NCBI RefSeq assembly: GCF_037042905.1
Contig: NC_087251.1
Coordinates: 44,580,001-44,644,000, forward strand
Direction of reading: 5' to 3'
Source: Lytechinus pictus
Taxonomy: Eukaryota
Length of the DNA: 64,000 nt
Part shown: positions 387 to 26,100 of the stretch, piece by piece
Layout: each line of letters starts with the position of its first letter
Position numbering within the stretch: position 1 is the stretch's first letter
Made by a program: the position numbers and the translations under genes
Notes under the pieces: model-generated
The model's input: only the letters and a program-made list of their open reading frames with translations
What the model was told of the DNA's origin: nothing
The model's database searches: none

Positions 387-1578
387 CTGCTTGATAAATT
401 GCGCAGCTAGACGGTGCATGTTTTCATCATGTAGGAGTGTCTGAAGGAGAGACTTGGCAAACTCCTCTGCCTTCATGGCCACATGCTCATGCTCCAGAGA
501 TCGTGAGGCTACTTGCGATACTTCCACAGCAACATTTTCTCTGATAGGATCCCGCAATAGGTACACCATCAGACCTGAAATGGAAAGAAAAAAATTACAT
601 GGATTTCATTCAAATCACTGTCAAAGATTTTTCATGAGTCACAAGTAACATTGATTAATTCCTTCAGTATTTTCCAGCATATTTTATCATTTTCTGTTAG
701 GGGCCTAGATCTATATGGATAATCCTGTTACATCAAAGGTGATTTTAAAAATCTAATTAATGCTCTCATTAATCTAGGCTACATCATCGAGATGAGACTG
801 TTGAATTACGACTCAAAATTTATCAGAGTAAAACCCTATATTACTGTAAAACAAATAATGTTTGTCATGTCTCCGGACGTAGACTACATTTAACATTATC
901 TAAACTTAGACCCCTAATCTCCATGATCTATTTACCTATGATGATGAAAACTCCTACTCCAATACGAACAGTCGAGTACCCGTGAAATCTGAGTGAGTTC
1001 TCCAGCTTCTTCAGCTTCTTCAGCTGGTGGAGGACAGATCTGTGGTCTTGGTCATGTTTCACTGGTTGGCCTGATGATGACTGCGTTGAGGCAGGATTAG
1101 ATGACAAGTATCTGGTGGAACTAAAATTCCAATGACAAACATTTGCCAATTTTACTTGAAGGAATTTCAATTGGAGATGTTGTTGCCTCCAAGTCCAAGA
1201 AGACAGTGGAATTGTTGAGAAACAGTTTTCTGACTTTAATGTTAGATGCTGTGATGAGGAATCATGAGGCCGCCTTGCCCTTGATGGTTGTTGAAAATGG
1301 GATAAAACATACGACGTTGTGAATCTAACACTAAACTCGGTCTCGGGAGTTCTCACACGGGAGCTGTGCAATGAATCAAACAGGATCCTTGGAGAGGAAT
1401 ACCCCGAACGCCAGGCGGGAGCGATGCCCAGGCCCGCGTTGCCTGACGTTAGTGATAATGAAGAGCTGACGGGAAAGCCATGGTTGCCAGAGGCTCTAAA
1501 GTTGATACTTTTTCGACAAAAAGAAATAACAAAACCATTTCTAAAATAACCAACAGATGAAAATACATTCATCTTCAT
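387..1578 (-). CDS. Uncharacterised, probably mitochondria-targeted single-pass membrane protein; first two coding exons, gene continues off the left edge
   Basis: Exon 1 is 1578-936 (ATG to ...ATAG|gtaaat, phase 1) and exon 2 is 574-387 (tttcag|GT..., ends AAGCAG|gtatac). The join is in frame: ...RFHGYSTVRIGVGVFIIIG/LMVYLLRDPIRENVAVEVSQVASRSLEHEH... The N-terminus is R/S-rich and acid-poor (presequence-like), followed by one hydrophobic segment and then amphipathic helices. Confidence 0.75.
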
Positions 1579-1699
1579 ATAACCAATTAACAGATCGTTT
1601 CAGCGAAAAAAGCGTCCAATACTACAATAATGGAGCAATAATCCAACAAGTTCAGTCCCCAGTCCATGAAATTCAGACTTCAGAACGAATGCATTCATT

Positions 1700-2001
1700 T
1701 TGATACCGGTACCGTACGTATGGCGTCTTTGGGTGTTTAGCAGACGACGCGCGACAACCGCGAGCCTCGGGCGCAAGGCGTTTAGCACGGCGCTGAGACG
1801 TACCCCCGCCTAGCCTACGCTACCGTCCATCCACCGGGCGCATTCGGCGACGGGCGACACACGTACACGTCACGTACACCGGCGTAGTGCACCTGCATGA
1901 CTGCACTGCAGCAGTGATTCGCGGATTCAGTTACCTACCGTACTTGAAAAAGAAAAGTGGTCAGTGTTCCTATTCCTGTCAGCTTGTGACTTCGAATAAG
2001 A
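1700..2001. promoter_or_regulatory. CpG-rich bidirectional promoter region
   Basis: GC/CpG-dense stretch (about 1720-1925, with ACGTAC repeats at 1861-1879) in otherwise AT-rich DNA. It lies between divergent start codons at 1578 (minus) and 2002 (plus). Confidence 0.6.
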
Positions 2002-5000
2002 ATGCAGAAACGCAAGGAACTCATTTTAGACGAATTTGAGACGGTAAGATTCTATTATTTCAAAGATTTCAAGCGCCAAGTGAAGAGTAATTTTTTTTTG
2101 AAAGACTGAGTTTAATAAACATGTTAAACGTCGTCTATGACTTGTTATGGACCCACCTGTTTCTATTCACGTACGGTACCCGGTACGTTTTAATAGAAAC
2201 AAGTGGGCCAGTCAACTCAAGTCAAAGACGTCGATGATGGTTGAGACTATATTGGCGTCGATCCGGCAGGTCATTAATATTCATGAGCTTGGAGATCTTG
2301 TTCGACCGATGACGTTGCTCATTAATATTAATATTACGGTAACACATTGGGAATCGCGGGTGCGCCTCACCACTTACAACTTTACCCTATCAAGTGCAGT
2401 TATACTGGCGTAAATCTAACCCAGAGAGCTCCAGCCCGCGTAGCGGGCTGGAGCCCAGACGCGCAGTGTACAAACGGGCATTCAGGTGAGAGTACCGTGA
2501 AGTTTGGTCAATATCATTTACATAATACATAATTTAAACAGAAATTAAGCACTTACCACGATTGTATGGATGATAGTCTAACGAGTGGCAGTTTCCTGAC
2601 ATCGAGGCACAGACTGGAACCTCAAAAAACGATCAGTTCTGTCGCGGTGTCTCTCCTTCTTTCAAAATTCATAGCAAAATGGCCGTTCGAGAGGGTGTAG
2701 GGCGCATGCGCGAATTTGACAAAGTCTATATGCGCTAGTGCTATACTAGCCTCGGTCTCGATCGGCCATTTTGTGTTGAATTCTGAAAGAGGAGAGCTAC
2801 CGCGACAGAACTGATCGTTTTTTGAGGTTCCAGTCTGTGCCTCGATGTCAGGAAACTGCCACTCGTTAGACTATCATCCATACAATCGTGGTAAGTGCTT
2901 AATTTCTGTTTAAATTATGTATTATGTAAATGATATTGACCAAACTTCACGGTACTCTCACCTGAATGCCCGTTTGTACACTGCGCGTCTGGGCTCCAGC
3001 CCGCTACGCGGGCTGGAGCTCTCTGGGTTAGCGTAAATCCAGCAAAATCCGGCAGTTTTTTATGGAAATAACCAAAATAATGATAATGAACCCAAATGAA
3101 AGTGTTGGTTTGTCCAACTTGTTGGAAAAGACAGCATGGAGCTAGTAAAGCAGAAACCATTCATGGAAAAAGATTGACAACTTGTATTTTCAATTCCCTC
3201 GGCCTCATCATCATGATCATGTCAATGTGCATAAAACTGGCGTCGATTCAGCATCTTTGGCGCCAATCCGGCAGTTTTTATGGAATTAACCAAAATAATG
3301 ACAATGAACCCTCTCTCTCTTAGCTGATCCCTCCACTATTTGGAGATTCCTAGGGTCCAAGGTAAACAGATATGTTCCATATACGCTGTCATTCTGGTTT
3401 AGGAGGTTTGAACCATGTCAGTACGGAATACATCAATTTTGTGGAGGAAAAAGAGAGATAATAGGAGTAAACTATTGTGTAGTTCCTTGGGCAAACAAAG
3501 TGTTGGTTTGTCCAACTTGATGGAAAAGACAGCATGGAGCAAGTAAAGCAGAAATCATTTATGGAAACAGATTGACAACTTGTATTTTAAATTTCCCATT
3601 CATATCAATGTGCATAAAACTGGCGTCGATTCAGCATCTTTGGCGCTAATCCGGCAGTTTTTATGGAATTAACCAAAATAATAACAATGAACCCAAATCA
3701 AAGTGTTGGTTTGTCCAAATTGATGGAAAAGACAGCATGGAGCAAGTAAAGCAGAAATCATTTATGGAAAAAGATTGACAACTTGTATTTTAAATTCCCC
3801 CATCATGATCATATCAATGTGCATAAAACTGGCGTCGATTCAGCATCTTTGGCGCTAATCCGGCAGTTTTTATGGAATTAACCAAAATAATGACAAGGAA
3901 TCAAATTCAAAGTGTTGGTTTGTCCAACTTGATGGAAAAGACAGCATGGAGCTAGTAAAGCAGAAATCATTTATGGAAAAAGATTGACAACTTGTATTTT
4001 CAATTCCCCCATCATCATGATCATGTCAATGTGCATAAAACTGACGTCGATTCAGCATCTTTGGCGCTAATCCGGCAGTTTTTATGGAATTAACCAAAAT
4101 AATGACAATGAATCCAATTCAAAGTGTTGGTTTGTCCAACTTGATGGAAAAGACAGTATGGAGCTATAGTAATGCAGAAATTATTTATGGAAAAAGATTG
4201 ACAACTTGTATTTTCAATTCCCCCATCATCATGATCATGTCAATGTGCATAAAACTGGCGTCGATTCAGCATCTTTGGCGCTAATCCGGCAGTTTTTATG
4301 GAATTAACCAAAATAATGACAATAAACCCAAATCAAAGTGTTGGCTTGTCCATCTTGATGGAAAAGACAGCATGGAGCTAGTAAAGCAGAAATCATTAAT
4401 GGAAAAAGATTCACAACTTGTATTTTCAATTCCCCATTCATTATCAATGTACATTAAACTGGCGTAATTCCAGTTTCTACTGGGATAAAGAAAAAAAATC
4501 AGATTACAAGGTTCAAATCGGATCTCTGAAAAAATATTTTTACCAAACAGCAGTTACTTCATAAACAAAAATTAGATAATGTAATAGTTTCATCAGTATC
4601 ATTGAGTTCTAAAATGTTTTTGTCTCACCTGCATAGCAGAGCGAGACTATAGGCGCCGCTTTTCCGACGGCGTCAACACCAAATCTTAACCAAAGGTTAA
4701 GTTTTTAAAATGACATGTATGTGGACCTAGTTCATGACACTTGGACATAAGGTTAATCAAGTATTACTGAACATCCTGCCTGAGTTTCAAGTCACATGAC
4801 CAAGGTCAAAGGTCATTTAGGGTCAATTAACTTTGGCCAAGTTGGGGGCATCTGTTGAATTACCATCATAACTTTGAAAGTTTATGGATCTGATTCATGA
4901 AACTTGGACATAAGAGTAATCAAGTATCACTGAAGATCCTGTGTGAGTTTCAGGTCACATGATCAAGGTCGTTTAAGGTCAATGAACTTTGGCAAAGTTG

Positions 5001-8000
5001 GGGGTATATGTTGAATTACCATCATAACTTTGAAAGTTTATTGGTCTTGTTCATAAAAATTGGATATAATTATGAGTAATCAAGTATCACTGAACATCCC
5101 GTGCGAGTTTAAGGTCACATGACCAATGTCAAAGGTCATTAAGGTCAATGAACTTTGGCCAAGTTGGTGGTAATTATGAAATTGCTGTCACAACTTTCAA
5201 AGTTTATGGATATAGTTTATGAATTGTTTATGAATAATCTAGTATCACTGACAAGTCTTAGGTTACATGATCAAGGTCAAATGTCATTTAGGGTCAATGA
5301 GCATGTATTATATCATTATATGAATGGTGTTTTTTGTAAATAATTATTTCATAGTTTTCAAAGTCAGCACTGGTACTATATTGAATTGTGTAATGCAGGT
5401 GAGACTGCCAGAGGTGCTATCACTTGTTATGCAAGGCAGATTCCCTCATATTAGAGTAATAAAGCTAAACATATATTCTGCCCTAATAGGTATGTAACCG
5501 AAAGTACTTAGATTTTACAAACTTTTTTGGAATACCGGTACCTTAAATTTATTACAGAAGGGAGAAATAAGTGTGGAAACTGAGCTAAAATATTCTCTTG
5601 TGTTTCATGAAGATGCAAGTGATTATTAGATAAATTATGTTAAACTCTCAAAATGATGAAGAATGAAATGAATAAATGAAACATGATGTTGAATCACTGT
5701 TTCAGGTGTGTAAATACGATATATGTTTTCATTGTGTTAGTTCAGTGTTTTCAATTGTTGACAAACTCAAATTGTTTTTTGCTCCACCCCCACCCCAAAG
5801 TGTCTCAATGGTATGCATCCTGTAGTGGTGGATGAATATGTGATATGGTATTGTGAGTGTATGTGATGTGTTTTGGACCAAGTAATTTTGTCCACGCTTA
5901 GCACTGCAGTGTTAGCTTCAAATTAACAAAATTTCCACATGTTTTCTTTTCCTCTTTATTTCTCTCTCCTTCCTCTTATTACTTCTTATTATTTTTCTTC
6001 CTCTTTCATTGTATTTCTTTTTTTCCCTTCTAGTCAAGCTTTCTTTTCATCTCATTTATTGATTTTTGCAACATTTTTCATAACAAAATTCTGGACAAGA
6101 AAATACATACAATTTCGACATCAAGATAATGAACAATACTTTTGTACATAAATCATCAAATATATCATACATAAATGAAAAAAATATTAAGTGGTATTTT
6201 CTGTTACAAAATAAATAGGATGGTTGCAAAAGCAAAGCTTGAAAACCAGTGGCGTACCTGGCATATTTCGTCAGGGGGGCAAAAATGAGCAAAGTGGGGA
6301 TATCAACTTCACAGTTTTTAATTTTCGAGCGAGCAAAGCGAGCGAACATTTTTTTTCAATAATTATTTTGCCTTTTTACATGATATGAAACTTGCAGAAA
6401 TTATACATTCGGTCATAAAATTACCAATACACGAGGATATTTGGGCACCTCGCAGTCCCTGTTGCCCTGCATTTTGCAGCCCATCCCCATACACGTTTGG
6501 ATGTGTAGGTCTGGAAGTGGCACTGAAGATGGGAAAGGTTACCCTGGGGGTGCCCAATAAAACAGCTGGGATCTTGCTACTACTGATATTTCCTATCGGG
6601 CGATTGCACTTTATTGTCGAAATTAATTCTTTTCTTTTTTTTATATCATTCCAGAAATGAAATGTACAGTGGATCGTGATAGATATATTTCTAATCAAGT
6701 GTTAATTGCAATGTTTATATAAAAGGAAAATGAAACCCTTGAAACATGATAGCTTATGCAATAACAGAAAAATCAAAGAAACAAATAAACGAAAGTTTGA
6801 GAAAAATTGAATGAATAATAAGAAAGTTATGAGTATTTGAAGTTTAGATCATTATTAATTGAGTAATGTAGATCCTCCTATTGGCAATGCGACAAAGATG
6901 TGTGATGTCACATGTGAACAACTTTCCCATTACTTTTCTATATATTTCACTTAAAATGCCTCTTTTATCATATCTATCAGTATAGATCATGTATTCTTTC
7001 TATATGAGGGCATGTAATACAGATTTTAAAAGAATGCATTTTGATAAAGAGTATGTATCACACTAACAAAGAGCAAAAATAGACATTTTCAGGGTATTTT
7101 ATAGTCCATCAAAGGGAAAGTTGTTCACATGTGACATCACAAATATTGGTCACATTGCCAATAGGAGGATCTCCATAGCATTAGTGATCACAATATTCCA
7201 ATCAACCAAAAAATTACACGGGGGCGGCGGGCGAATTCGCCCCGGAAAGTCCAAAAAGAGCCCCGGAAAAGGGCTAAAAACATTCACACGAGGGCGACTG
7301 CAAAACTCATAATCGCCCCCGTCAACACTGTATATTTCACAGTGGCAAATTGTCCATAGACTGTGTACAACGAATAGACCGTCTCAGCTCAGCGAATCGG
7401 AGACCGCTGATTGGCCAATCGCGCAGATCACGTCATGACTACGTGGTCGCCAAAATAATTCCTTCGGACTGCCTGCGAAAGTATCGATAGCGATAACGAT
7501 ATCCGGTCACATTGTCTACGCGGGAAATGGTCTTGGTTCGTGATCGGATCGCTCCAGTATCGATCGAAAATTATCGAGACTCGGCAATTTCATGCATATT
7601 CACGCGACGCTCCGAAACCCGGAAATCAATTGACTTTGTACACGTTGCGATAGACTCTACAGACTCCAACGAACACGATGCTATATCAACGCTAATTCGT
7701 AAGATTTTGACCGAAAATCAAGAAGTAATCGAAATTCGCTTACCTGTTCGGTATCGGTGAGAAAATAGATCCTCCGAGAATACCTTTCATAATTCATATA
7801 AATTATAGGAAAGTGAAATTCTAGGTCGATTTTGGTACGAGGTGATAGAGTATTGCACACTTGTTTTGGTGGAATACTGTGTGGGGCTATGGAAGGCTTG
7901 CACTGCGCATGCTTACTATATTTTCATTCATAAATTGGCTCTCGGCAGTGGCTGGATGACGTCATGTAATAAGCAAAATATACACGCCCGCTAGCGTTGA

Positions 8001-11000
8001 ACGCACCGCATGTACAGTACATCTTGTTAAAGCAGAGCCTGCAGCAGAGCAGCCCTGCACTGCTGACCAGCATCCCTTCAATGTGGCACACACACACACA
8101 CACCCCCACACACACACCCTCACACACACACACACACAAACGCAAAAAAGCCGCGAAATAGCTCCAGAAATTGTAGACCAAAAGCTTCGGTCTCTGTTAT
8201 GTTGGTTGTTCAGCTGAACTCCGTTGGCTTCACTCACCAAATACAGAGACCGAAGTTCTAGCGCGATCTGTACAGGGGACTCAATGGCCATATGTTTATG
8301 TACTTAAGATCGGATAAAACGGGGAAGTGAATTTGCACGACAGCTGAGGTAAGTCACTGTTTTTGTTCCTTTTAACTTGATTTTTCTCTGTTTTTTTGCA
8401 ATTAATGCCAAGAGGGAATATTAATTTGCATTTTGGTCACGTTAATTTTCAAAAATTTTATTCATTAAAGACAAAAATTGAAGAGCCCCGACGGGGGGAT
8501 TTTGCATTGCAAGTCCCCTAATGGTGGCTGCACGCTAGCGAGCCGTCTGTGTACGAGGAGAAAAAAAAAAAAAAAAATGTTAAAAAACTCCTCGAAACAG
8601 ACGGCTGCCAGCTGTCTACAGAAATTGTAGCCCTGGAAAGTGGAAAAAGAGCCCTGGAAAATGAAAAAGTAGCCCTGGAAAATTTTTAAGTTTCTCCAAA
8701 AAGAGCCCTGGAAAGAAAAAAAGTAATTTTTTGGTTGATTCCAATGCTCATAACTTTCTCATTATTTGTCTGATTTTTCTCAAACTTGCTTTGATCTTAT
8801 ATTTGAATTTTCTGTTTCCACAAAAGCCAACTTGTTTCAAAGATTTCATTCCCCTTTAAAATACTTCTTTAATTCCTCTTTAAAGGTTTTTACATTATGT
8901 TCCCAATTCTGCTCATTTGGAGATGTTATAAAAGAGGTATTTGACATTGAACTCAGTTGTGTTTCATGTATTGACTTGCATTTGTTTTATTTCCATACAT
9001 TCACTCATAAAAAAATAAATATGAACGTGAAAATATATGCGACAGTAACATGATATATCACTAGATCGCTCACTCACTAGCAGGAATGTCAGAAGATTGA
9101 GGGAATTGAAATTGGAAAATATAGATAGGCGGACGAAGGGATCGGGTATCAGGATAGGAAGGGGGTACTGTAATAACCAGAGGAATGTGTAAGCAGGGGT
9201 ATAGCTAGGCCTTTACCGACAGATATCAGTACCGATTACTGACGTCCGACGACCAATACTCATTTATATCCAACCCATGGGCAGATCCAGGATTTTCAAG
9301 GGGAACATTTGTTTACAAAAAAAATGACAAGCCCCACCCCCAAAAAGTCTTCACTTTCACTTGCACGTGCCTAACAACTAACATTAAAATTATATTAAAA
9401 TAATAAATGCGAGCGTGAAGCGCGAGCTGAAATTTTCTAAAAATTTAGACCCAAAACAATACATTTCTGTACTTAACTATATGAATAGGATGAGTATCTT
9501 CCTTAATAAATTAATAAAATATGCGAGCGCGAAGCGCGAGCTACAAATTTTGAAATTCCTAACTGGACACTAGACATTCTAAGCAGTTTTACAAGATGGG
9601 TATCTAAACAGTCGTGCGGGCACAAAGCGCCAGCTAAAGCTTTTGATATTCCGATTTAAGAACTGGATATTCTAAACACTTTTAGTAACCATGAACAAAT
9701 CGGTTTCTAACTGAATAATTAATTGATGCGAGCGCCAAGGGCGAGCTGAAAATTTGAGATATTCCCCCCTAAAAAGTGAACATTCTAAGCACCTTTTTTA
9801 AATTATGAACAAGATGGTAGTTAAAAACAATTAATTGGTGAGAGCGCGAAGCGCCAGCTGAAAACTTTTGATATTTTGACCTGAAAACTTTACATTCTAA
9901 GCACTTCATTTAATTATGAACAGGATGGAACTTTATGCGAGTGCGAAGATCGAGCGGCAATTTTTGATATTCCAATCTAAGAATTTGATATTCTAAGCAA
10001 TTTTTGTAACCGTGAACAAATTGGTTTCTAATTATATACTTTTGATATTTTTTATTTTCCGACCTGAAAACCGGACATTCTAACCAATTAATTTATCTAT
10101 GAACAGGATGGATATACCTAAATAGTTATATGTGAGCACGAAACGCGAGCTGAAATTTTCGATATTCCGGCCTAAGAACTGGATCAGTTGGAACAATCAG
10201 TTGGAACAGCCTCGTGTGCCCGACAGTTTATCATTTTTTCCGACAGTCTGCAGTCCAATTTTTGTTTTTCCACTTTCTCTTAAACTCTATCTTCTTTTTC
10301 CCTTCCCCCTTTTTTCTCTCTTTCCTTTTTCCTCTTTTCTTTTTTCTTTCCCCTTTTTCGCTTCCTTTTTTTGTTTGTGACTCGTCAGGGGGGGGGGGCA
10401 GTCTGCCCCCTGCCCCCCCCCCTTAGGTACGCTAGTGTTGAAAACGTAACAGCCCTGGAAAATAGCCAAAATAATTAATATCTATTATCGTAAGACGTGC
10501 AAGTGCACTCTTCTACTTCTTCGCTGTCCTCAACTCCTGCATGGCTTTCATGCCCCCTTCGTCTTAAAGTTGGAATGACGTTAATTGTTTGGTTTTGGTT
10601 AATTTCATAAAAACTGCCGGATTAGCGCCAAAGATGCTGAATCGACGCCAGTTTTATGCACATTGACATGATGATGGGGGAATTTAAAATACAAGTTGTC
10701 AATCTTTTTCCATAAATGATTTCTGCTTTACTAGCTCCATGCTGTCTATTCCATCAAGTTGGACAAACTAACACTTTGATTTGGGTTCATTGTCATTATT
10801 TTGGTTAATTCCATAAAAACTGCCGGATTGGTGCCAAAGATGCTGAATCGACGCCAGTTTTATGCACATTGATATGATCATGATGATGGGGGAATTGAAA
10901 ATACAAGTTGTCAATCTTTTTTCATAAATGATTTCTGCTTTACTTGCTCCATGCTGTCTTTTCCATCAAGTTGGACAAACCAACACTTTGATTTGGGTTC

Positions 11001-14000
11001 ATTGTCATTATTTTGGTTAATTCCATAAAAACTGCCGGATTAGCGCCAAAGATGCTGAATCGACGCCAGTTTTATGCACATTGATATGAATGGGGAATTT
11101 AAAATACAAGTTGTGAATCTTTTTCCATAAATGATTTCTGCTTTACTTGCTCCATGCTGTCTTTTCCATCAAGTTGGACAAACCAACACTTTGATTTGGG
11201 TTCATTGTCATTATTTTGGTTAATTCCATAAAAACTGCCGGATTAGCGCCAAAGATGCTGAATCGACGCCAGTTTTATGCACATTGATATGAATGGGGAA
11301 TTTAAACTACAAGTTGTCAATCTTTTTCCATAAATGATTTCTGCTTTACTAGCTCCATGCTGTCTATTCCATCAAGTTGGACAAACCAACACTTTGATTT
11401 GGGTTCATTGTCATTATTTTGGTTAATTCCATAAAAACTGCCGGATTAGCGCCAAAGATGCTGAATCGACGCCAGTTTTATGCACATTGATATGAATGGG
11501 GAATTTAAAATACAAGTTGTCAATCTTTTTCCATAAATGATTTCTGCTTTACTTGCTCCATGCTGTCTTTTCCATCAAGTTGGACAAACCAACACTTTGA
11601 TTTGGGTTCATTGTCATTATTTTGGTTAATTCCATAAAAACTGCCGGATTAGCGCCAAAGATGCTGAATCGACGCCAGTTTTATGCACATTGATATGAAT
11701 GGGGAATTGAAAATACAAGTTGTCAATCTTTTTCCATAAATGATTTCTGCTTTACTTGCTCCATGCTGTCTTTTCCATCAAGTTGGACAAACCAACACTT
11801 TGATTTGGGTTCATTGTCATTATTTTGGTTAATTCCATAAAAACTGCCGGATTAGCGCCAAAGATGCTGAATCGACGCCAGTTTTATGCACATTGATATG
11901 GGGAATTTCAAAAATACAAGTTGTCAATCTTTTTCCATTAATGATTTCTGCTTTTCCAGCTCCATGCTGTCTTTTCCATCAAGTTGGACAAACCAACACT
12001 TTGATTTGGGTTCATTGTCATTATTTTGGTTAATTCCATAAAAACTGCCGGATTAGCGCCAAAGATGCTGAATCGACGCCAGTTTTATGCACATTGATAT
12101 GAATGGGGAATAGAAAATACAAGTTGTCAATCTTTTTCCATAAATGATTTCTGCTTTACTAGCTCCATGCTGTCTATTCCATCAAGTTGGACGAACCAAC
12201 ACTTTGATTTGGGTTCATTGTCATTATTTTGGTTAATTCCATAAAAACTGCCGGATTGGCGCCAAAGATGCTGAATCGACGCCAGTTTTATGCACATTGA
12301 TATGATCATGATGATGGGGGAATTGAAAATACAAGTTGTCAATCTTTTTCCATAAATGATTTCTGCTTTACTAGCTCCATGCTGTCTATTCCATCAAGTT
12401 GGACAAACCAACACTTTGATTTGGGTTCATTGTCATTATTTTGGTTAATTCCATAAAAACTGCCGGATTAGCGCCAAAGATGCTGAATCGACGCCAGTTT
12501 TATGCACATTGATATGAATGGGGAATTTAAAATACAAGTTGTCAATCTTTTTCCATGAATGATTTCTGCTTTACTTGCTCCATGCTGTCTTTTCCATCAA
12601 GTTGGACAAACCAACACTTTGATTTGGGTTCATTGTCATTATTTTGGTTAATTCCATAAAAACTGCCGGATTAGCGCCAAAGATGCTGAATCGACGCCAG
12701 TTTTATGCACATTGATATGAATGGGGAATTGAAAATACAAGTTGTCAATCTTTTTCCATAAATGATTTCTGCTTTACTTGCTCCATGCTGTCCTTTCCAT
12801 CAAGTTGGACAAACCAACACTTTGATTTGGGTTCATTGTCATTATTTTGGTTAATTCCATAAAAACTGCCGGATTAGCGCCAAAGATGCTGAATCGACGC
12901 TAGTTTTATGCACATTGACATGATCATGATGATGAGGGAATTGAAAATACAAGTTGTCAATCTTTTTCCATGAATGGTTTCTGCTTTACTAGCTCCATGC
13001 TGTCTTTTCCAACAAGTTGGACAAACCAACACTTTCATTTGGGTTCATTATCATTATTTTGGTTATTTCCATAAAAAACTGCCGGATTTTGCTGGATTTA
13101 CGCCAGTATAACTGCACTTGATAGGGTAAAGTTGTAAGTGGTGAGGCGCACCCGCGATTCCCAATGTGTTACCGTAATATTAATATTAATGAGCAACGTC
13201 ATCGGTCGAACGAGATCTCCAAGCTCATGAATATTAATGACCTGCCGGATCGACGCCAATATAGTCTCAACCGTCGATGATATGGATGATACGATGACTG
13301 GGACCACATGTTAGGGTATGGTACACTCTAAGTTAAGATATGTGTAAAAATGTTAATGGTTGTGAATTGTGTTGTCATTGTGAGATAATTCGTGATTCTG
13401 GGCCTGGGAAGAGGGTTGTGCATTGCACTCTAGGCGACACCCCAATACTTACCCGTGCTAATAAACTGGGACTCCACTCACGCGCATTTGGGCCGCCCTA
13501 GCTTAGAACTAAGCAATATTATCTAGAAATTGTCATGAAATATGTTCTATTAAATAAATTGATAATGTTTAATCGGTACTCACCGGTTCTTTTGTTGCAT
13601 TTTCAGACCATTTCTCACAATTCTTCGTAAATATTTGCGGCAAATTTTGTCGCCATAGACAGCTATACATCCATCTTTATTAATAAATGGAGCGCCCTTT
13701 ACGATAGTTGTTAATGCCGCGGAGAAATCGTTAGGCATTTTGGCATGTGTTCAAGGCGTTCTTTCTGTTTTATTTTTTATATTGAAGATTGTGCATTTGT
13801 TGAATAGCGCCGTCTACGTCAGGTATGAGATCGAGTGTATAAATACACTCTTCCAAAATAATTATGATTCCGACCTGGCGCTGTTTAACTTCAATCTCTT
13901 TCACCTAAATTAGCGATGAATGCTAGCATTATAAAATATATATTATTAACGTCTGACGAAAAGAATAACCAACCGATCAGCTGACGAGAACGCGAATCAC

Positions 14001-17000
14001 GTGATCTTCATATCAGCTTCGATCGCGAGTCAGAAGTGAAGAGCAACTGCCCAGAAAATCAGGAAAAAGCCGTGAAAATGTAAGTTCCCCTTCATTTCTT
14101 TCATTTTTTTTGTTGTTGCTAACGATGCATTTACACTATAAAATTATAATTTAAATAAGAGAAAGGAATATAGCTTGTACTTGTGATATAATATATAAAT
14201 ATCCTGTTCTCAGAGATTTCTAACCAAAAATACTACTGATGTCGCCTATGAGGTCCATACATGTAATGTTTGGACCTCATTGGTACTACTCAGTAGCACT
14301 ATAGGCGACACCCCAATACTTACCCGTGCTAATAAACTGGGACTCCACTCACGCGCATTTGGGCCGCCCTAGCTTAGAACTAAGCAATATTATCTAGAAA
14401 TTGTTAAACTCTAGTCATGAAATATGTTCTATTAAATAAATTGATAATGTTTAATCGGTACTCACCGGTTCTTTTGTTGCATTTTCAGACCATTTCTCAC
14501 AATTCTTCGTAAATATTTGCGGCAAATTTTGTCGCCATAGACAGCTTAGCATCCATCTTTATTGATAAATGGAGCGCCCTTTACGATAGTTGTTAATGCC
14601 GTTAGGCATTTTGGCCTGTGTTCAAGGCGTTCTTTCTGTTTTATTTTTTATATTGAAGATTGTGCATTTGTTGAATAGCGCCGTCTACGTCAGGTATGAG
14701 ATCGAGTGTATAAATACACTCTTCCAAAATAATTATGATTCCGACCTGGCGCTGTTTAACTTCAATCTCTTTCACCTAAATTAGCGATGAATGCTAGCAT
14801 TATAAAATATATATTATTAACGTCTGACGAAAAGAATAACCAACCGATCAGCTGACGAGAACGCGAATCACGTGATCTTCATATCAGCTTCGATCGCGAG
14901 TCAGAAGAGAAGAGCAGCTGCCCAGAAAATCAGGAAAAAGCCGTGAAAATGTAAGTTCCCCTTCATTTCTTTCATTTTTTGTTGTTGCTAACGATGCATT
15001 TACACTATAAAATTATAATTTAAATAAGAGAAAGGAATATAGCTTGTACTTGTGATATAATATATAAATATCCTGTTCTCAGAGATTTCTAACCAAAAAT
15101 ACTACTGATGTCGCCTATGAGGTCCATACATGTAATGTTGGACCTCATTGGTACTAGGAGTGGTGCATTGTGTGGTCTGCAGTGACCCAGTGTTGCCTGA
15201 GTGTCAGTCTCGGCTCTGAACATGCTGAACAGCCAGAGGAAAGTCTGAAACGAGAAAGAGAGAGAACAGTTGAGAATCGAGATCTTATTTCGACATGTAT
15301 TGTTACTGGACTTAGTCAAATTTCTAGTTTTTTTAATTATTTCTCCTCGTACACAGATGGCTCGCGAACGTGCAGCTGCCATTTTGGGGGTTGCAATGCA
15401 AAAAAAACCCGTTGGCGACGGGGGTCTTTGATTTTTCACTTTATTCTAAATAATTACATAAAAAATTCCCTAATAGAAAGTTGATTATTCTGTTTTTGCA
15501 CCAAAACGGGAAAAAATGAACTTAAAAGGGAAAAAAAGGAGTGACTTACTTCGAGTTAGGCTGTCGTACAACTCCCATTATATCCGAAGGTGTTATAATA
15601 CACAAACATATTATGGCCTTCGGAAAAACTTCTGGGTCGAAACCATTGGCCAATCAGATCATCCCTTCTAATATCTGGTTGGATTGCTTGTCGATCGTAC
15701 GCAAGCGACAAACGTTCAAGTTTCAACTCATGGAAACATCTAGGCACTGTAAATGATGTAAGGGTCAAAGGGTGGAGTCTGTGGTCACTTTTATGAATAT
15801 TCAGAACCAAGATGGCAACTTACAGATTCATCTCATGAAGAATTTGATTTTAACCAGTTTCCAGGCGGGAATATAGGGTAAGAAATTAGTCCAAGGGTAC
15901 GATATAATTAAATACAGCGGTCGTAATAGGTTATGTACTTAGGTAATACTAATAAGATTAAACTTGTTTGTGGGGGTTCTTTTTAACTTTGCTATTTCTG
16001 CCATTTATCCCTGTACAGATCAAGTTAGAACTTCGGTCTCTGTAATTGGTGAGTGGAGCCAGCGGAGTTCAGCGGAACAACCAATATAATGGAGACCGAA
16101 GCTTTTGGTCTAAAACCAGTCTAGAATCTAGATCTAGACTGTCTATTTGCTTTTTTACCATCTTGTTTTGTTGTTTCCTTATAGAAATTACAAATGTATT
16201 TTTGCTTCTTTTTGTTATTAAATTTTTTTTTTGAAATTCCTTGTCTACAATTAGGAAAGTCCTCAATAAAATAGCACAATTCCTATCCAGGATAGATCTA
16301 TATTAAAAGAATATAGATCGATGTGGAGCTACATTATTTCTACAGAGTGAAGGTATCTAAACCTTTTACAACACTCGACTCTGCCCAGTGACTAATCTGC
16401 AACTAATTGCTTGTGGTATTACTGAAGATGCAGATTGAGGCTCTACGCTGCACTGTATTGATGGCACAGGTTTTTAATCCTGCTCTTGACTTGATGGTTG
16501 ATATTGATGGCTAAAAGATTTGTAATAAATTGATAATAGTAGTTTTTTTCCATTTCATGTAGACAAGGCAATACTGAATTTCAAAAACTAAGAAAATATT
16601 CACTTAGTCTGGTGGATGTAATGGCAGCTGGGCATGATAACGAATTTGGATTTTTTTTTCGGGTGAATAGTTTAAAATATTATGTGCACATGAAGTTATT
16701 TTGTGACTCGTATTTTGTGCGCTTTGACTTTATTAGTTGAGGTAATGCAATCGCATTCCAAAAGGAAGACAACAAACATACTCAATTGTGTCTGTTTGAC
16801 CATGATCATGCATTTGACCTACGAGCTCCCGGAAATTTCATGGTTGTCTAACCTTGATTTAGCTTAAAAACTAAAAGCCTTGGGATCATTGTATTTACTG
16901 ACAGCATACAGGGCTCCACAAACCTCAGCTTTTTGCACAAAGTTAATCGATTCCCAGGGAGTGGAGGATGTGCATACATTGTGTGCGGGAATGACTGATT

Positions 17001-19973
17001 GAATCCAATGACCGGGTTAACAATATATCTGTAAAGCGCTTAGACACATCGTTGCGATGTATTAAGCGCTATATAAAAGCGGATTATTATTAATTTTATT
17101 ATTATTATTACTTATTATTTGTACTGCACTTTTCCCATTAGGCCCAAAGCGCTTACAATGAATTAATTAAATGTAATATTTTAAAAACTACAAAGTACGA
17201 AAGAGATGAGTTTTTTATTTACTTTTTGAAAATTGCAAATATTGGAGACTGTCTAATTATTATTATCATCCCTTTAATAAACAGTCATAAACATGAAAAT
17301 AGTTTTTCATAAAATTATCCACAGGTAAAGAACAGAGAGCATGAACTCCAAGTCAAGAAAGAAGAGCTGCTGCTTATGAGAAAGGAGCATGATGAAGATA
17401 TCAAAGAAAGGGAGAGGATTATCACCGCAGCCAGAGAGAATCAACCTGGTGTACAAGGGAAGAAAATGTAAGATATTAATTTTGTTCCTTGGCTTGCTAA
17501 TGCAATATAAATGTTAATGAGAATGTCCCACTCTTCCTTATCTGCAGTCGAGATAATCATGATGATGTAGGAAGAAATTATGTAATATTTTAATTTGTTT
17601 CTTGGTTTGCTAAATACAATGTAATTGTTAATGTGAATTACTCAATCTTCCCTATCTGTCTGTTAGGAGAAAAGCAATTCTAGATGAATATCAAGGGTCA
17701 TTCTGTGTCTTTGTTATTTTTTCTTCAAGAAAACACCAATGAACACCTTGGAAAATGAAAAAAAATACATTATAGGTTTATATAGGCATGATTAACAATT
17801 TATTTTGGAAATTAATGTACTGAATGAGACCCTTTTAATTTTGGACAAAACATCACATTTTGACAGATTTTTTTCCATCAAAATATATGCCCTAATGGTA
17901 TATACATTTAGAAAATATTCTTATTTTTTTTAATTTGATTTGTGTACACTCCAATTTTCTTTCAGGTTTGATGAAGTATTTAGACTTGTTGATAGCTGCT
18001 ATCATCTACAGCTCTTGATTTGTGAACTTCAAGAACAACTTGCATTTGCAAAGGAATCGTGCGAAGAAAAGGACAGTATTTGTTTACTTAAAGGTATAGT
18101 AGCTGTGAGATTTATTCAGTGAAGAGTAATTATGTTGATTGTTTTCAAGAAAATAAGAATCATTTCTCTGTGTACTTTCAAGAGTGGAAAATGTAGATAA
18201 ATGCCTTGCCAAAGGACACAAGTGCTGCCGTGGGATATGAACCCGGACCTTGTGGGTCAAAGTCGGGAGACTTATCCACTGAGCCACAACACTTCTTCCA
18301 AGTGGTGTTAGACCAAGTGGATAATAAACAAAATGGATATAGCTTCTTTAGCATCAGAATAAATGGTAAATGGGCTAAATCAAATGGCAATTAGAACTAA
18401 TGTGTAGTTGACAAACTAGGATGAGGTCATGTGGGATGAGTCCAAATGGAAAGAACCTGAAGTGGGTGTACTGTAGACAAGCAGAAAATTACTAATAAAT
18501 ATTTTAAACTTTGTAACTCCTTCCTGAATTTCCAATTTTGTATTTGCAGGTCTAACTGAAGCCCAAGATGTTCCTGAAAATATGGACCCATCTACCATGT
18601 TATCTGCCTGGTATCAACAGATGAAGAAACATGTTCAGGATAGGATTAGCCAACAGTGTAAGATCACGTTCTTAATATAATTTTCTTGTGGTATCATATA
18701 ATGTTTTGTGGTCATTGTCAGGCCACTAGAGGAGAAGCAGCCTGTTACATGAAAAGAAACCATTAATAAGATGATGATGATGTTTTGGGACTATCGACCA
18801 AATATGGTGTGACAACTGACAAATCTGTACAAACTTTTAAAGAGTGTTTGTTTATACTTGGTATTTTTGTATGTTTGCTTTTATTTCTGTTTGAAACTTC
18901 AAATAATTCAATAAAAAATGTTTTTACATATAAAGTATACAAAAATATTCCAGGATATAAAACAAAACACCATAATCATAGTATATAAATAATGCACATA
19001 CACCGATGCGAAGTATAAACTTTTCTTTAAAAAATATGCAATCAATGAACGCAAGATACTGCAACACCTGACTGACATACTCATTTTAGTGAATTGTTTT
19101 ATGTTCATGGACTACCTGATAGGATGGTGTATAAAATAAATGTCAAGTAGGATCACATATCAAGTTTGTGACATGTTAAAGCTAAAATCTGATCAATTTT
19201 TTTTCATGTATAATTATATTCATGTATGTAGACCACTGTGTGGATGAAGATTGTTTCTACAATGTCAGACTGTCCTCAGACAACCAAGGAAGAGAAGAAA
19301 GGTGTGCGCCAACAAGCTTGACCTTTTTGACAAGACACAGAGGCTACTGCCTTCATCTCACTATAGAAGAAACTAGGTAAATAAAAAAATTAAAACAATT
19401 AAATGGTTTATTAAACATGAAACATATACAATGCATTGTGTGCAGGAATGACTGATTGAATCCGATGATCGAGGTAATAATCTGTAAGCACACAATGGGT
19501 GATTTCAAGTCCGGTGTTGGCGTTGGTGTTGGTGTTGGAAGCACAATTTTGATTGCTTCCCCTTGCTCTAAAACCTATTCTGAGTTTGTAAAACTGAACC
19601 AGATCACATTATTGACATCTCAACAACTAGTGCGTGACTTTTCATGACCATCTTCATTTTATGTTTGGTGTTATACTTGTGTAAAAGTTGACCTAACACC
19701 AACACCAAAAGGTCAACACTGAACTTGAAATCACCCATTATATTGTTATTATTGTTATAGAAAAGTGTTCATAGTATAATTGGTATTTTCATTGCACACA
19801 GGTCACCGTCCACAGATGGTATTCAACCCACTCTGCACCATGCTTTCACATCAGACATCCACCTTGAAGGGTTAGAGTTGAAAGGTCAAGAGTACCTAGG
19901 AAGGGGTCGGGCTGCCCAAGAGTTCATCATCGAAGAGGTGTGGCCATTAATGGATGAAAATATCTCTTTATGA
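2002..19973 (+). CDS. Six-exon gene for a 245-aa protein with an N-terminal coiled coil and a C-terminal globular domain; tentatively kinetochore Spc24-like
   Basis: Exons 2002-2043, 17325-17467, 17966-18093, 18550-18657, 19232-19376 and 19802-19973. All introns are GT-AG with matching phases (0,2,1,1,2). Total 738 nt, no internal stop, ends in TGA. There is an in-frame upstream stop at 1987. Protein: MQKRKELILDEFET/VKNREHELQVKKEELLLMRKEHDEDIKERERII...GRGRAAQEFIIEEVWPLMDENISL. Exons 2-6 are better supported than the link to exon 1 across the 15.3-kb intron. Confidence 0.7.
2417..3030. mobile_element. 614-bp near-palindromic MITE inserted in the left foldback arm
   Basis: TAACCCAGAGAG...CTCTCTGGGTTA, with arms matching for ~230 bp and imperfectly to ~275 bp. 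The duplication GCGTAAATC sits at 2408-2416 and 3031-3039 (7 bp if the TIR is extended by one base). The uninterrupted site is preserved in the right arm at 13090-13110. Confidence 0.92.
3040..4470 (+). repeat. Left-arm tandem array, about 6 units of ~203-214 bp, interrupted by an unrelated ~180-bp insert (3312-~3493)
   Basis: The anchor AAAACTG(G/A)CGT recurs at 3233, 3616, 3825, 4037, 4251 and ~4456. Confidence 0.95.
4621..5428 (+). mobile_element. Helentron-associated (HINE/DINE-1-like) element with internal ~160-bp tandem repeats
   Basis: Starts in a T-run. Subterminal inverted repeats are GTCTCACCTGCA (4622-4633) and TGCAGGTGAGAC (5394-5405), and it ends ...CACTTGTT. Internal units are anchored by AATC(A/T)AGTAT at 4755, 4918, 5078 and 5236. 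Confidence 0.75.
8087..8138 (+). repeat. (CA)n microsatellite
   Basis: Interrupted CA run read directly from the sequence. Confidence 0.9.
8174..8618. mobile_element. 445-bp element with TAGAC...GTCTA termini and a 9-bp TSD
   Basis: CAGAAATTG at 8165-8173 and 8619-8627. An inverted, longer relative lies at ~15335-16112 and ends at the same ...GCTTTTGGTCTA terminus. Confidence 0.75.
9405..10165 (+). repeat. Degenerate ~100-115-bp tandem repeats inside the hAT element
   Basis: Variants of GCGAGCGCGAAGCGCGAGCTGAAA at about 9408, 9523, 9616, 9728, 9839, 9937 and 10132, most followed by ACATTCTAAGCA-like motifs. Confidence 0.8.
10590..13095 (-). repeat. Right-arm tandem array, about 12 units of 201-213 bp, inverted relative to 3040-4470
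   Basis: The anchor AAACTGCCGG ends at 10620, 10826, 11038, 11241, 11444, 11647, 11850, 12051, 12254, 12466, 12669, 12872 and 13085. Confidence 0.97.
13426..15162. mobile_element. Head-to-tail dimer of an ~865-bp unit flanked by an 8-bp TSD
   Basis: Copies 13426-14288 and 14297-15156 are highly similar, differing by two 11-bp indels and a few substitutions. GTGCATTG lies at 13418-13425 and 15163-15170. Short termini are CACTCTAG / CTAGGAGTG. Confidence 0.8.
15335..16112 (-). mobile_element. Partial, longer relative of the 8174-8618 element
   Basis: Inverted homology blocks: 15335-15590 with 8300-8570, and 16008-16112 with 8174-8280. It has ~400 extra bp in the middle and no TSD was found. 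Confidence 0.65.
16945..17110 (+). mobile_element. SINE 3' part with an L2-like tail
   Basis: CCCAGGGAGTGGAG...GTAAAGCGCTTAGA...AAGCGCTATATAAAA followed by (TTA)n. Related fragments occur at ~19433-19492 and ~33930-34035. Confidence 0.65.
18183..18296 (-). mobile_element. tRNA-derived SINE head
   Basis: The reverse strand reads box A TGGCTCAGTGG, then box B-like GGTTCATATCC, then GTGTCCTTTGGCAAGGCA. Degenerate relatives occur at ~20340-20425 and ~35205-35300. Confidence 0.75.
19497..19736. mobile_element. MITE
   Basis: TIR GGGTGATTTCAAGT / ACTTGAAATCACCC with inner GGTGTT repeats. Confidence 0.75.
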
Positions 19974-20635
19974 GAATGGCTTCATAGTTTGATGGAAAAA
20001 TTCAATAAGCGTACTCCACGGTCGTACGAGGGAGCATTTTATAAAACATAATTTTCACTGACTGCTGTTATAAGCTACTCAGAATTCCTTGCTTCTGATT
20101 GGTTGGGAGCAAATTAGTCAGTGAAAATCACCAACACAAATATCACTGACAAAACTTGCAGAGGAGTTCAAGACAGAACTGCGCTTCCAGAGTTCCACCG
20201 AGATGGCCCTCAAATAAGTTAGTGAGGCCAATCTGGTAGGGCCATATGAATGAAAATAATATAGGGTATTTGTATAGCACACTTATCCACCTTGTCAGGT
20301 GCTCAAGTTGTTCAATTATTACCTCGGTCATTGCTCACAGCTTTTTTTTTTAAGGAATTCATGCCGGTTCCCATTTTCCTCTGTTTCAAAGTCCGGAGAC
20401 TAATCCACTTGGCCACAATGCTCCACACCAACTTGTGTGCCATCCATGCCAAGAGGTTTACCATATGCTAAAAGATAATTCATGAAACACACCCTAGGAC
20501 TGGCAGCAAACGCATGGTAGAGGCAATTTGTTCTTGATGCAGATCAGTTGCTAAACATACTTTTTTTCTAACATATCACAATATATTGGGGGAAGTTATG
20601 ATTGAGATCAGAATCAAGCTTAGGTTAGTATTTAA

Positions 20636-21227
20636 AGGTCAAGTCCACCCCAGAAAAATGTTGATTTGAATAAATAGAGAAAAATAAAACTAGCATAATG
20701 CTGAAAATGTTATCAAAATTGGATGTAAAATAAGAAAGTTATGACATTTTAAAGTTTCGCTTAATTTCACAAAACAGTTATATGCATATCCTGGTCGGTA
20801 TGCAAATGAGACTATGATGTAATCCACTCACTATTTCTTTTGCATTTTATTACATAAAATATGAAATATTATAATGTTCTCCTCATTGTCAAGTGAAACA
20901 ATTATTAATTCCTCCCTGAACATGTGGAATTAGCATTGTTTAATAATTCAGTCAAGTTGGTCTTTGTTGTCAAATATGTAAAAAATGAAATATTGTATAA
21001 GTCAAACAATAAAAATCAAAAGAAATAGTGAGTGAACGACATCATCCGCTGCCTCATTTGAATGTCACTGAATTGTGCATATCATTGCTCTGTGAAAAAT
21101 AAGCGAAACTTTAAGAAGTCATATCTTTTTTATTTTACATCCGATTTTTAAGAAATTTTCAGTGTTATACTAGTTTGATTTTTCTCTATTAATTCAAATA
21201 AATATTTTTCTGGGGTGGACTTAACCT
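20636..21227. mobile_element. TTAA-target MITE (AGGNCAAGTCCACC family)
   Basis: TTAA|AGGTCAAGTCCACCCCAGAAAAAT...ATTTTTCTGGGGTGGACTTAACCT|TTAG with long imperfect arms. Same family as 42169-42766 and 46727-47513. Confidence 0.85.
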
Positions 21228-22302
21228 TTAGGTTTGTGCAGATTTGGTTTAATTGCAATAACAGCCAAGTCTGTGATGCATTAGTGGTGTTGTTCATCGA
21301 TTGATGCAACAAGGACCTATTCATCTTGGGTGTTGAACATTAGGGGTTCGTTGCCAAATGCACTTATCATTCACCAGCGCGAGAAACAGTTACAAAACAC
21401 ACTGAACAGTTCCAAATGTGCGATGTATTTACAACGTTTAATTGCAGATCACCTCTTGCGACTACCTCACGGTTTCACCAATTGTGTGTGTGTGTGTGCG
21501 CAGTTTAGCTCGTGTAATTCAGCAAGTGTATTCAGCAGGCGGTTTGACTGAAAGCTATAGAGAAAATAACATAAATGATAGATGGTCTATAATACAAGAA
21601 AAAAGATACTAGTACTTACTTATAAACAACTAAGTAAATATAAAAGTAAACAGTTCAATACAATTTATATACAACCCATACCAATGCATACGTAATAGTT
21701 GACTGTTATCAGCACGTGAATAAAATCCTAATTATTCATATCTCCATCTTAATTTGGGAAACATAATTATATCATGGTAAATATCAATAAACTCAAGCTG
21801 TGAAAGTATTTTAAAGTCAAATAAAGAACCCATCAATGCATAATGATATGGTTATAACTCACTAACAACTGAGAAGAGTATTCAATTAATACTTAATACA
21901 CTAGTTCTGATAAACTGATAGATACTACTGCTGAAACAATTCTTATACATAAAGATAAATATAAAATAACTCACCAACTGTTAGAACCCGATTAACAACA
22001 GCTTAATCAGGACTACTCTCTTTTTCAAAGTCCAACCTCTCCTCTTAAGAGTGATTTTGAACACAATGAATAATGCTCTTGCTTGAACCCAGTATAAATG
22101 CATCTTCTTCCACACAAAGAGAATTATGGGAAAGTTACACCCTTTGGTCACTGCGTTGGTCATCGGATCTATCACTACTTAAACATATATACCCAATTAG
22201 ACACTGCTAAACACTGGAGTGAAGGAATTTGGAGGATACATATAATACACATGCTATATGCTCTGCTTAAAACTAAGGTGTCCTAATTCTAACTCCCATA
22301 CT

Positions 22303-23139: not shown

Positions 23140-26100
23140 TTATAGGACGCACGTAAAACCTAACCCTAAAAAATCTTCTTGGCACATTGAAAACGAATCA
23201 GTATCGAGATTGTGAGCCACTTCAAGGTGCACTGCCCTGCTTGCAAGGCATGTGAAGATACATCCATATCTCTTCACTGTTTTCCGCCCTTCCTTAACAT
23301 AGAATGGCCCAAAATAATCAATGCCAACACTAGAAAATGGTGGTTTGTCAGGTGTGACTGTCTTTAGGTAAATCTGCCATGAACTGTTGCCCTCTGGCAG
23401 CATTCCTCTTCTTACATCTGAAACTTCTTTCAATTGTTTTGCGTACTGTAGCTCCACCATTAATGATCCAGAACCGCTCTCTCAAGGAGTTCATGTAGCA
23501 CCTGCACCACAATGTCCCACCAATATGTGATGATGAGCAGCTTGGTGACATGGTGTCCACTTGGAATGATCTCGGGGTGTTTGCTATCATATGGTACTGA
23601 TGAATTAGCCAGTCTTCCACCAACGCGCAACACTCCATCTACTATGACAGGATTAACCTTTGCTAAGCTAAGACCAGAGGTCTTCTTAGCACTCCTATCA
23701 ACAACTTTCAGCTCATTAGGGAACTCTCTCGCTGAGCGTACTTAACAATAGCCACTTCAGCCTCCTGCAGCTCTGCAGGAGAAAGCACATTGTTGGTGCA
23801 TGGCTCTTTGTTTTCTGACCTCTTCAAGCAAAGCTATCTCAAGAATCGCCTGATCCAGGCAGCGCCCTTCTTGAGTCTCGTCAATGGTGATTATTGTTTC
23901 AGGAGATCATCCTGTCACTACTGACAAAGTTGCTCTTTGCTATCTATTTCACTTCAAGGTCTCCTTGAAGTTCTTGCATCGATCAAAGGAGATGCAAGGG
24001 TTGTGGCCATTGATCCTGTTTCTTCCACAGGAAATCAGGCCCATTAAGCCATCTTGATTTGGAAGTCATTTCACCTGCAGACAAGCCTCTAGACCCCTCA
24101 TCTGCGGAATTCGACTTCGTTTTTACAAATCGCCACTGCGCAACATCAGTTGCAGCACAGATCTTAGATACATGATTAGCCACAAATGTATGAAAGTGCC
24201 TACTCTCATTTAAATATGCTGATGTAGAATCTGTGTAGTAAGTGGTTGTGGCTATCAGCAGCTTCAACTCTTTCAGGATGGTCTGGCCATGCAGGACTGC
24301 CAGAACAGCTCCTGAGAGCTCTAGATTTGGTATTATAGTCTTCACTGGCGCTAGCCTTGTCTTCCCCATAACAAAGGCACTGTGAACCTTTCCTTCCGCA
24401 TCCTCTGTACGGAGAAAGGCCACTGCTGCATACGTTCTCTGGGAAGCATCGCAAAAGATGTGTAAGTCGTGTCTTGATGTCTCTGCATTTGTATTTAGTT
24501 TCAGACACCACTGAATCTGCAGTCCTTGCAGTTTGCTTCCATAAAACTTGTTCAGCTTCACCAACAACTTGATCCCATCCTATGCCTTCTATGCAAACAT
24601 CCTGCAAGAGAATCTTTGCTACCAGCAAAAACTGGGGCTACAAATCCGAGAGGATCGTATGAAACACTGGTCACCGAGGATTTACCTTGAAAGTGAAGAT
24701 GTCAGCTTCATTATTCCAAGATACCCCAAGAGTTCGCTCCATGGGAGGACTATCAAAGTCGAGGTCAATTACAGATGCTGTTTGCTTGGAAGGAGGGATA
24801 CTGGCAATGACATCATAGTCATCACTGACCCACTTCGTGAGTCGAAATCCTCCAGCTGACAGCACCTTACGTAGACCTCTTGAAAGGTCTTTTAGTATCT
24901 TGTCGTGTTGCCACAGACATAAGGCAGTCATCTACGTATAAAAGTTATCTTTCACTGCCTTCGTCGCTTCCTCGAGCCCCACTCCGCCATTTTCCTCGGC
25001 AGCCTTCCTCAGTGCAAAAGCTGCACATCTTGGAGAGGAAGTGGCACCAAACAAGTGAACCAACATCATGTAGGTCCTTGGACAAGTCTCCTTTAGGCCA
25101 CCAGAGAAATCGCAGCGCATCACTGTCTTTAGGTGCTACCTTCACCTGGTGAAACATTGCTTCAATGTCGGCCATCAAGGCAACCCTTTCTTCTCTGAAT
25201 CTTTTCAAGACGCCAACTAGGTTATTATTGTAATCAAGTCCTTGGAGTAGCTGGTCGTTCCGTGATGTGCCATGGCTCCAGGCCGCACAATCAAAGACTA
25301 CTCGTACCTTACCTTTCTGTGGATGGACAACTGGATGATGAGGCATGTACCATGTCTTTCCTGAATGACATGTACTATCCACATCAGACACTTCTTGAGC
25401 ATAGCCTTTCTCTATGTAACCCGCCACAGTTTCTGTATACTTCTCATGCATCACTTGGTCCTTAGCCAAGCGCCTCTGTAATCGCATTTTCTTGCCATCG
25501 GGCAGATTGACATCCGGATGACACCAGGGCAATCCAATCTCATAGTGCCTATCGACCTTTTTGACTGTTTCTTTGAAGATCGCTTGAACTCGCTGATCTT
25601 CTACTGACAGCCCCCTTTTATCCTCATGGCAGTGCTCCATAGTCTTTGGAGCAAGTCATCACCCATAAATGTATGAGTGAAGTTAGAAGTGAACCCTGAC
25701 CTCTGTCTACTTTGGTCCTAGGTTGGTCCTAGTGGGTCCATCACAATACTGTATGCATAGCATATGGTTCTCCCTTCTTACCTTGTCTGTCTTCCTTAAC
25801 CCAAAATGCTTCCGGAGTATCCCCTCCAATGAGGAGCATTACTTCATTGGAATCGATTTAAGGGATGGTGATGTCATCATCAGAAATCGGCAACTTCTCG
25901 ACTGTCCACACCCCTTCTAAGTCAATGCATTTAGTTTCCTTAATTCCAGAGACTGAGAGTTGGATCTCTGTACCACTCATCTCCTTGTTCTCCTGGTTAA
26001 TAGTAGACAGATTAAACCTTTTCTTGTCACCTTTTATACCCAGTTTCTGGGCGAATCTCTTGTCACAAAGTGAGACATCACTTCCCCCATCAAGACCCCA

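Follow-up and report, generated by a model that had tools for sequence, protein, structure and literature searches.

A gene-less foldback element with unequal mirror-image arrays of ~203-bp units in a first intron of Lytechinus pictus

We analyzed a 64-kb stretch of Lytechinus pictus DNA (contig NC_087251.1, positions 44,580,001 to 44,644,000 of the forward strand; hereafter the window). Positions 2230-13281, including the target-site duplications (TSDs), are occupied by a gene-less element of ~11 kb with mirror-image arms made of ~203-bp repeats. It is a foldback element, and it is probably moved by a Mutator/Rehavkus-type transposase that is encoded elsewhere and would bind a 16-bp motif in the arms. 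The anatomy of the element, that is, its TSD, its arms, the distribution of the motif and its position in intron 1 of a host gene, is real and well preserved (Table 1).

The 9-mer GTCGATGAT has two exact occurrences in the window, at 2230-2238 and 13273-13281, and both abut the GG...CC termini of the element. Given the composition of the flanks, the chance of a 9-bp identity at one fixed pair of positions is ~7e-6. Directly inside the TSD, the outer domains of the terminal inverted repeats (TIRs) are identical at 177 of 178 positions, the sole mismatch being at position 61. A preference for palindromic targets was also considered and rejected: when the TSD is set against its reverse complement, no more than 4 of the 9 bases agree, and one to three flanks give no basis for such a claim.

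The two arrays lie further inward and differ in copy number, with units at 3047 to ~4465 on the left and at 10593-13087 on the right. When the four nested insertions are removed, a core of 5,223 bp is left, of which ~1,120 bp form the non-arm middle. The original prediction, made from the letters of the window, had described the perfect 9-bp TSD with its GG...CC termini, ~178-bp outer domains with a single difference, mirror-image arrays of about six units on the left and about twelve on the right, and ~5.2 kb of remaining sequence with ~1.1 kb outside the arms. All of this was borne out by the measurements; only the unit range of 203-214 bp had to be widened slightly, to 201-219 bp across both arrays. 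Sequence comparison within the element revealed no inverted inner domain in its middle, and the array unit does not occur in the window outside the element.

The arrays retain traces of their history. The outermost units of the left and right array, L1 and R1, differ by two substitutions. In a tree of 18 units, no pair but these two is strongly supported (100/99), and most of the remaining forks are not resolved. Units differ on average by 4.5% within the left array (10 pairs), 2.6% within the right array (66 pairs) and 3.6% between the arms (60 pairs), values that would fit a more recent expansion or homogenization of the right array. Slippage or unequal exchange within an arm would alter the number of its units, whereas the outermost units of the two arms would stay paired. 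Assemblies often misjudge the copy number of tandem arrays, and the unit counts given here are those of the assembly. That the whole structure is an assembly artefact, or a chance pairing of two satellite arrays, is nevertheless highly improbable in view of the perfect TSD, the private differences of the arms, a nested element that has a separate TSD and is present in just one arm, and the unit-specific variants. In addition, independent contigs contain the outer domain.

The 16-bp motif (consensus TGGCGYNRWTYCRGCA) forms bases 15-30 of each end. Slightly varied copies of it are present in every unit, as a pair 20 bp apart, and also where the outer domain ends on its inward side and where the left array ends towards the middle. 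When the 64 kb were searched with a degenerate pattern of the motif, there were 35 matches, all of them within the arms and facing inward. As the pattern was derived from these same sites, its informative part is the absence of any match outside the arms. A scan with an 18-mer, allowing up to four mismatches, found 34 matches in the arms and one elsewhere. None of 1000 shuffled units reached the two unit matches of the best outer-domain 18-mer, and 19 of 1000 reached a single match.

By analogy with other transposons, the motif is likely to be a transposase-binding site, because additional subterminal repeats raise both transposase binding and excision in Muta1 of Aedes aegypti (PMC5499845) and the tandem repeats of Galileo likewise hold extra THAP binding sites (PMC3688188). 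A natural Muta1 derivative with three and seven repeats has also been described (PMC5499845, PMC5225508). In the foldback element, a transposase acting in trans would recognize the motif near each end and twice per unit, so that the arrays would multiply the number of binding sites, an effect that has been measured in Muta1 and Galileo. Insertion near a promoter would have occurred by cut-and-paste in trans, and some of the nested elements may have travelled as cargo.

We also compared the motif with Tm1, a Phantom-type Mutator/Foldback element of Meloidogyne that has a 9-bp TSD, unequal numbers of repeats at its ends and a FLYWCH-MULE (Mutator-like element) as partner (PMC3169594). The TSD length and the unequal end repeats are common to Tm1 and our element. 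Tm1, however, carries 14-bp head-to-tail motifs and asymmetric ends, whereas the element described here has two motifs per 203-bp unit and symmetric ends. Of the 14 bases of Tm1 Motif C, 11 agree with motif copy a, a score reached by 13 of 2000 shuffles; its first 12 bases agree at 11 of 12 (1 of 2000), a trimming chosen after the match had been seen. The resemblance is weak and is best taken as a lead towards Phantom-type MULEs. A bolder reading, which we regard as doubtful, is that the 203-bp monomer is a spaced pair of Phantom-type MULE sites whose recognition sequence is common with the nematode Tm1, and that the element belongs to one of several independent Lytechinus foldback families that insert into first introns and expand into satellites there. 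If true, these elements would form a natural series in which to ask whether selection on satellite monomers and on the length of arrays comes from transposase binding.

To look for other copies, contigs of four of 13 listed sequencing runs were compared with positions 600-2720 of the window. Over the left flank, the contigs of X10 (0 differences in 763 flank bases) and X11 are identical to the window, and an X10 contig joins position 934 to sequence matching 543-572; on account of this join, we read both runs as RNA of the same species. A 225-nt X10 contig matches 2239-2375 with four differences and continues with 28 unaligned letters past the terminus and 60 past 2375. We read this contig as the end of another copy of the element in another flank, breaking at the predicted end, 2239. 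In X11, loose ends were found at 2237 and 2269, in one contig each, the latter directly after the terminal motif. If the two belong to one contig, it would be a relative with only the first 31 bp in common; a splice at 2269 may also explain the loose end.

In a related species, organism A, the flanks differ from the window by ~4-10%, and the outer domain is present at ~91-94% identity in three contigs among the matches listed. One of these contigs extends 425 letters beyond 2416 without the nested miniature inverted-repeat transposable element (MITE) that follows in the window, as would be expected if the MITE had inserted later. The depth summed over contigs in organism A was 27-80 over the outer domain, up to 82 over the flanks and >130,000 over part of the MITE (2517-2658). 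The MITE is thus a very abundant repeat in organism A, and the depth contrast suggests that the foldback family is low-copy there, bearing in mind that depth does not equal copy number. The terminal 22-mer had no matches in metagenome contigs or in prokaryote genome contigs. Three metagenome loci with the unit 22-mer (GC 57-67%) were alike over 22-23 bases only, and three viral loci with the terminal 19-mer were alike at 11 of the next 43 bases in each; both sets were dismissed as chance. A literature search, with most subscription papers and Repbase reports outside its scope, gave, among the entries listed, no account of a foldback family with these ends or of a foldback element in Lytechinus, and the family sequence of the element may be uncatalogued.

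The copies bear on the question of whether the element is a compound unit, in which two inverted half-elements, each with an end and an array, captured genomic DNA with old repeats and moved together once, so that the middle is not specific to the family. Interiors appear to vary, given that the X10 copy departs from the window beyond 2375 and that a loose end lies at 2269 in X11. Moreover, an inverted inner domain is absent from the middle, which consists mostly of nested repeats. One of these repeats is 81% identical to a second copy elsewhere in the window, has ends 76% alike and looks older than the 99%-alike arms. On the other hand, a single perfect TSD surrounds both arms and the outer units match one-for-one. 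Variable middles are normal for foldbacks such as Tetris (PMC4079207) and for Muta1 derivatives (PMC5499845, PMC5225508). We therefore consider a compound origin quite unlikely; it would require the same enzyme and differ only in the origin of the middle.

No Pfam-recognized transposase was found in the frames scanned, in line with the original prediction. It contains 98 stop-to-stop frames of at least 45 aa, of which 56 (nearly all the non-array frames and some array frames) were scanned against Pfam; none reached the curated cut-off and none matched a transposase family, including the DDE_Tnp_IS1595 family of Merlin. Six weak matches (E 0.012-0.041), all below the cut-off, were discarded. 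Rfam gave no matches at gathering score in positions 1500-14000 of the window.

Structurally, the element has the long modular TIRs with unequal tandem repeats and the flanking perfect TSD of a foldback, and its 9-bp TSD and TIRs of >100 bp fall within the range of Mutator. MULEs have TSDs of 8-11 bp and tend to insert near genes, and Rehavkus, which is allied to MULEs, has TSDs of 9 bp (PMC6446971). The original prediction of a MULE-mobilized foldback therefore holds as far as a non-autonomous foldback is concerned; mobilization by Mutator/Rehavkus is our best guess, drawn from the 9-bp length of the TSD, from TIRs that are long and modular, and from the insertion close to the 5' end of a gene.

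Several observations weigh against this assignment. A transposase was found neither among the 56 frames scanned in the element nor in association with it. The evidence for other copies consists of one or two short contigs, in which neither paired ends nor TSDs were seen, no contig of the four runs crosses the junction of an empty site (cover by organism A is absent at 2162-2232), and the empty junction constructed in silico has no other copy within the 64-kb window. Conservation of the motif within the units is no more than suggestive, with 4 of 32 motif columns variable as against 38 of 171 in the rest, so that the motif is only slightly less variable. The Tm1 motif of M. hapla matches no better than expected by chance (equalled by 149 of 2000 shuffles), and the Muta1 repeat was rejected as a match (568 of 2000). 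Muta1 has a 145-bp TIR, 12-bp repeats without a sequence match to the motif and a terminal palindrome; none like it is visible at the ends of the element. Finally, the GG ends and the 9-bp TSD also suit Merlin, which has conserved 5'-GG ends, TSDs of 8-9 bp, TIRs of 24-462 bp and, in some families, internal tandem repeats (PMC8101967).

For the last reason, the superfamily assignment is tentative. The same foldback might be moved by Merlin, by a P/Galileo-type transposase or by an unclassified DDE family, and the foldback form did arise independently in the P-type Galileo, with extra THAP sites in its repeats (PMC3688188). We consider this unlikely. Most foldbacks have been assigned to Mutator (PMC4079207), and Rehavkus is known to combine 9-bp TSDs with mirror-image arrays of kilobase size, a combination not mentioned in the available part of the Merlin account. 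The weak resemblance of the motif also favors Tm1. The TSD of Galileo is 7 bp.

A sea urchin foldback with long modular TIRs is known from Strongylocentrotus purpuratus as the TU elements. These have short (~15-bp) repeats in the outer domain and an 8-bp TSD, whereas in the element described here the outer domain is unique and the long repeats lie inward. The closest designs are found in insects. In Tetris of Drosophila virilis, a non-repetitive flanking domain is followed by ~220-bp repeats, which vary in number, and by a non-coding middle; it has TSDs of 8-10 bp and no open reading frame, and its repeats form long satellite arrays (PMC4079207). Our element resembles it in the unique outer domain, the long repeats of similar size further inward, the non-coding middle and a TSD in the 8-10-bp range. 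Tetris, too, has a stretch common to flanking domain and repeat, and its authors propose a binding-site role together with Mutator membership (PMC4079207); this stretch is 37 bp long, whereas in the present element it is the 16-bp motif, found twice per unit. Tetris differs in having an inverted inner domain, which is absent here, and a flanking domain of up to 866 bp. Rehavkus-1_TC is 9.5 kb long, and its units measure 164 bp and number mostly five and eight at the ends (PMC10218199); related Tribolium elements have inverted termini of >11 kb and gave arrays of up to 80.5 kb (PMC12581902). Rehavkus is defined by its transposase, with a PHD finger, from insects and annelids, whereas our element is gene-less and comes from an echinoderm. 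By analogy, it would work like Tetris and Rehavkus; membership in either would hinge on the transposase. Units of ~200 bp had been put forward as setting this element apart from known foldbacks, a distinction that falls with the precedents of Tetris and Rehavkus-1_TC. The idea of nucleosome-sized units was not sustained either, as nothing in our analysis connects unit length with nucleosomes. Nor did the window give any sign of the predicted seeding of satellite DNA at new loci, the arrays being short and the unit confined there to the element.

The insertion site was placed with the Lytechinus pictus protein P0121 (uncharacterized LOC129265697), whose first 14 codons, at 2002-2043, are continued by the exon that starts at 17325. 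Since P0121 spans both exons, the element lies in intron 1 (2044-17324), with the splice donor at 2044, 186 bp upstream of the TSD. Four further exons follow up to 19970, and identity to P0121 is 82-96% over the better-aligned exons. Contigs of the same species span 934-1734 (spliced, from a minus-strand gene) and 1840-2047 (from the plus-strand host gene), which fits two divergent transcripts starting near 1700-1840; the GC-rich sequence at 1700-2047 is likely a bidirectional promoter. Neither of the two proteins flanking it has a Pfam match. An old palindrome of ~105 bp (2129-2233, 73% self-match) terminates at the target site, so the insertion took place at the edge of a decayed small MITE.

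Table 1. Features of the foldback element and its host gene (positions in the window)
Feature	Position	Strand	Remarks
Host gene, coding exon 1	2002..2043	+	Residues 1-14 of P0121
Left 9-bp TSD	2230..2238	+	One of two GTCGATGAT occurrences in the window
Left outer TIR domain, non-repetitive, 178 bp	2239..2416	+	Starts GG; 177/178 identical to right domain
Terminal copy of 16-bp motif	2253..2268	+	Consensus TGGCGYNRWTYCRGCA; candidate transposase-binding site, function inferred
Nested palindromic MITE, 614 bp	2417..3030	.	Own 9-bp TSD (2408-2416, 3031-3039); arms 238/240 identical
Left tandem array	3040..4465	+	5 full units and 1 nearly full; 2 motif copies per unit
180-bp insertion in left unit 2	3311..3490	.	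No TSD seen; no second copy in the window
Middle domain, piece 1	4466..4619	.	Non-coding
Nested 809-bp element	4620..5428	.	Short subterminal inverted repeats; 156-bp core repeats; T-rich target
Middle domain, piece 2	5429..6246	.	Non-coding; includes left copy of 8-bp TSD (6239-6246)
Nested 4.2-kb element	6247..10437	.	CAGTG...-type ends; perfect 8-bp TSD
Middle domain, piece 3	10446..10592	.	Non-coding
Right tandem array	10593..13094	-	12 full units and a short partial; 2 motif copies per unit
Right outer TIR domain, 178 bp	13095..13272	-	Terminates CC
Right 9-bp TSD	13273..13281	+	Second GTCGATGAT occurrence
Host gene, exon 2	17325..17468	+	P0121 alignment; end approximate

Among the nested insertions, the MITE has landed in the innermost motif copy of the left outer domain and is missing from the right arm. 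The 809-bp element is one that we take to be Helentron/HINE-like, and the 4.2-kb element is presumably hAT-like, judging by the length of its TSD. The latter contains further nested repeats at ~6716-8863 and 7202-8738. The repeat at 7202-8738 is a 1.5-kb element with TCAACC...GGTTGA ends, for which a 6-bp TSD is one reading (4 and 2 bp also fit), and a CpG-rich stretch with CCAAT-like boxes inside it (~7380-7990) might be a captured promoter. A tandem duplication of ~870 bp (13425-15156, 96% identity) begins 144 bp to the right of the foldback element. Elsewhere in the window, palindromic MITE families were seen at 20629-21230, 41360-41540, 42039-42946, 50207-50778 and 59390-59567, some of them with two to three copies. 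Decayed pol fragments of a long terminal repeat retrotransposon lie on the minus strand at 23140-26260; judging by their motifs, we take these to be BEL/Pao-like. Exons of two more genes are located at 39134-39445 on the minus strand, from a gene that is presumably RTF1-like, and at 48190-57223 on the plus strand (ZFYVE1).

The element leaves the concept of foldback transposons unchanged, as the design with ~200-bp units was already known from Tetris and Rehavkus-1_TC. Of the details that are new, the candidate binding motif is the most useful. The route from foldback to satellite, known from Drosophila and Tribolium, gains in the element a case from an echinoderm, at the stage of short arrays. 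With a sharply defined candidate site at the end and twice in each unit, the proposed binding role of satellite-like units would become testable once the partner transposase is found.

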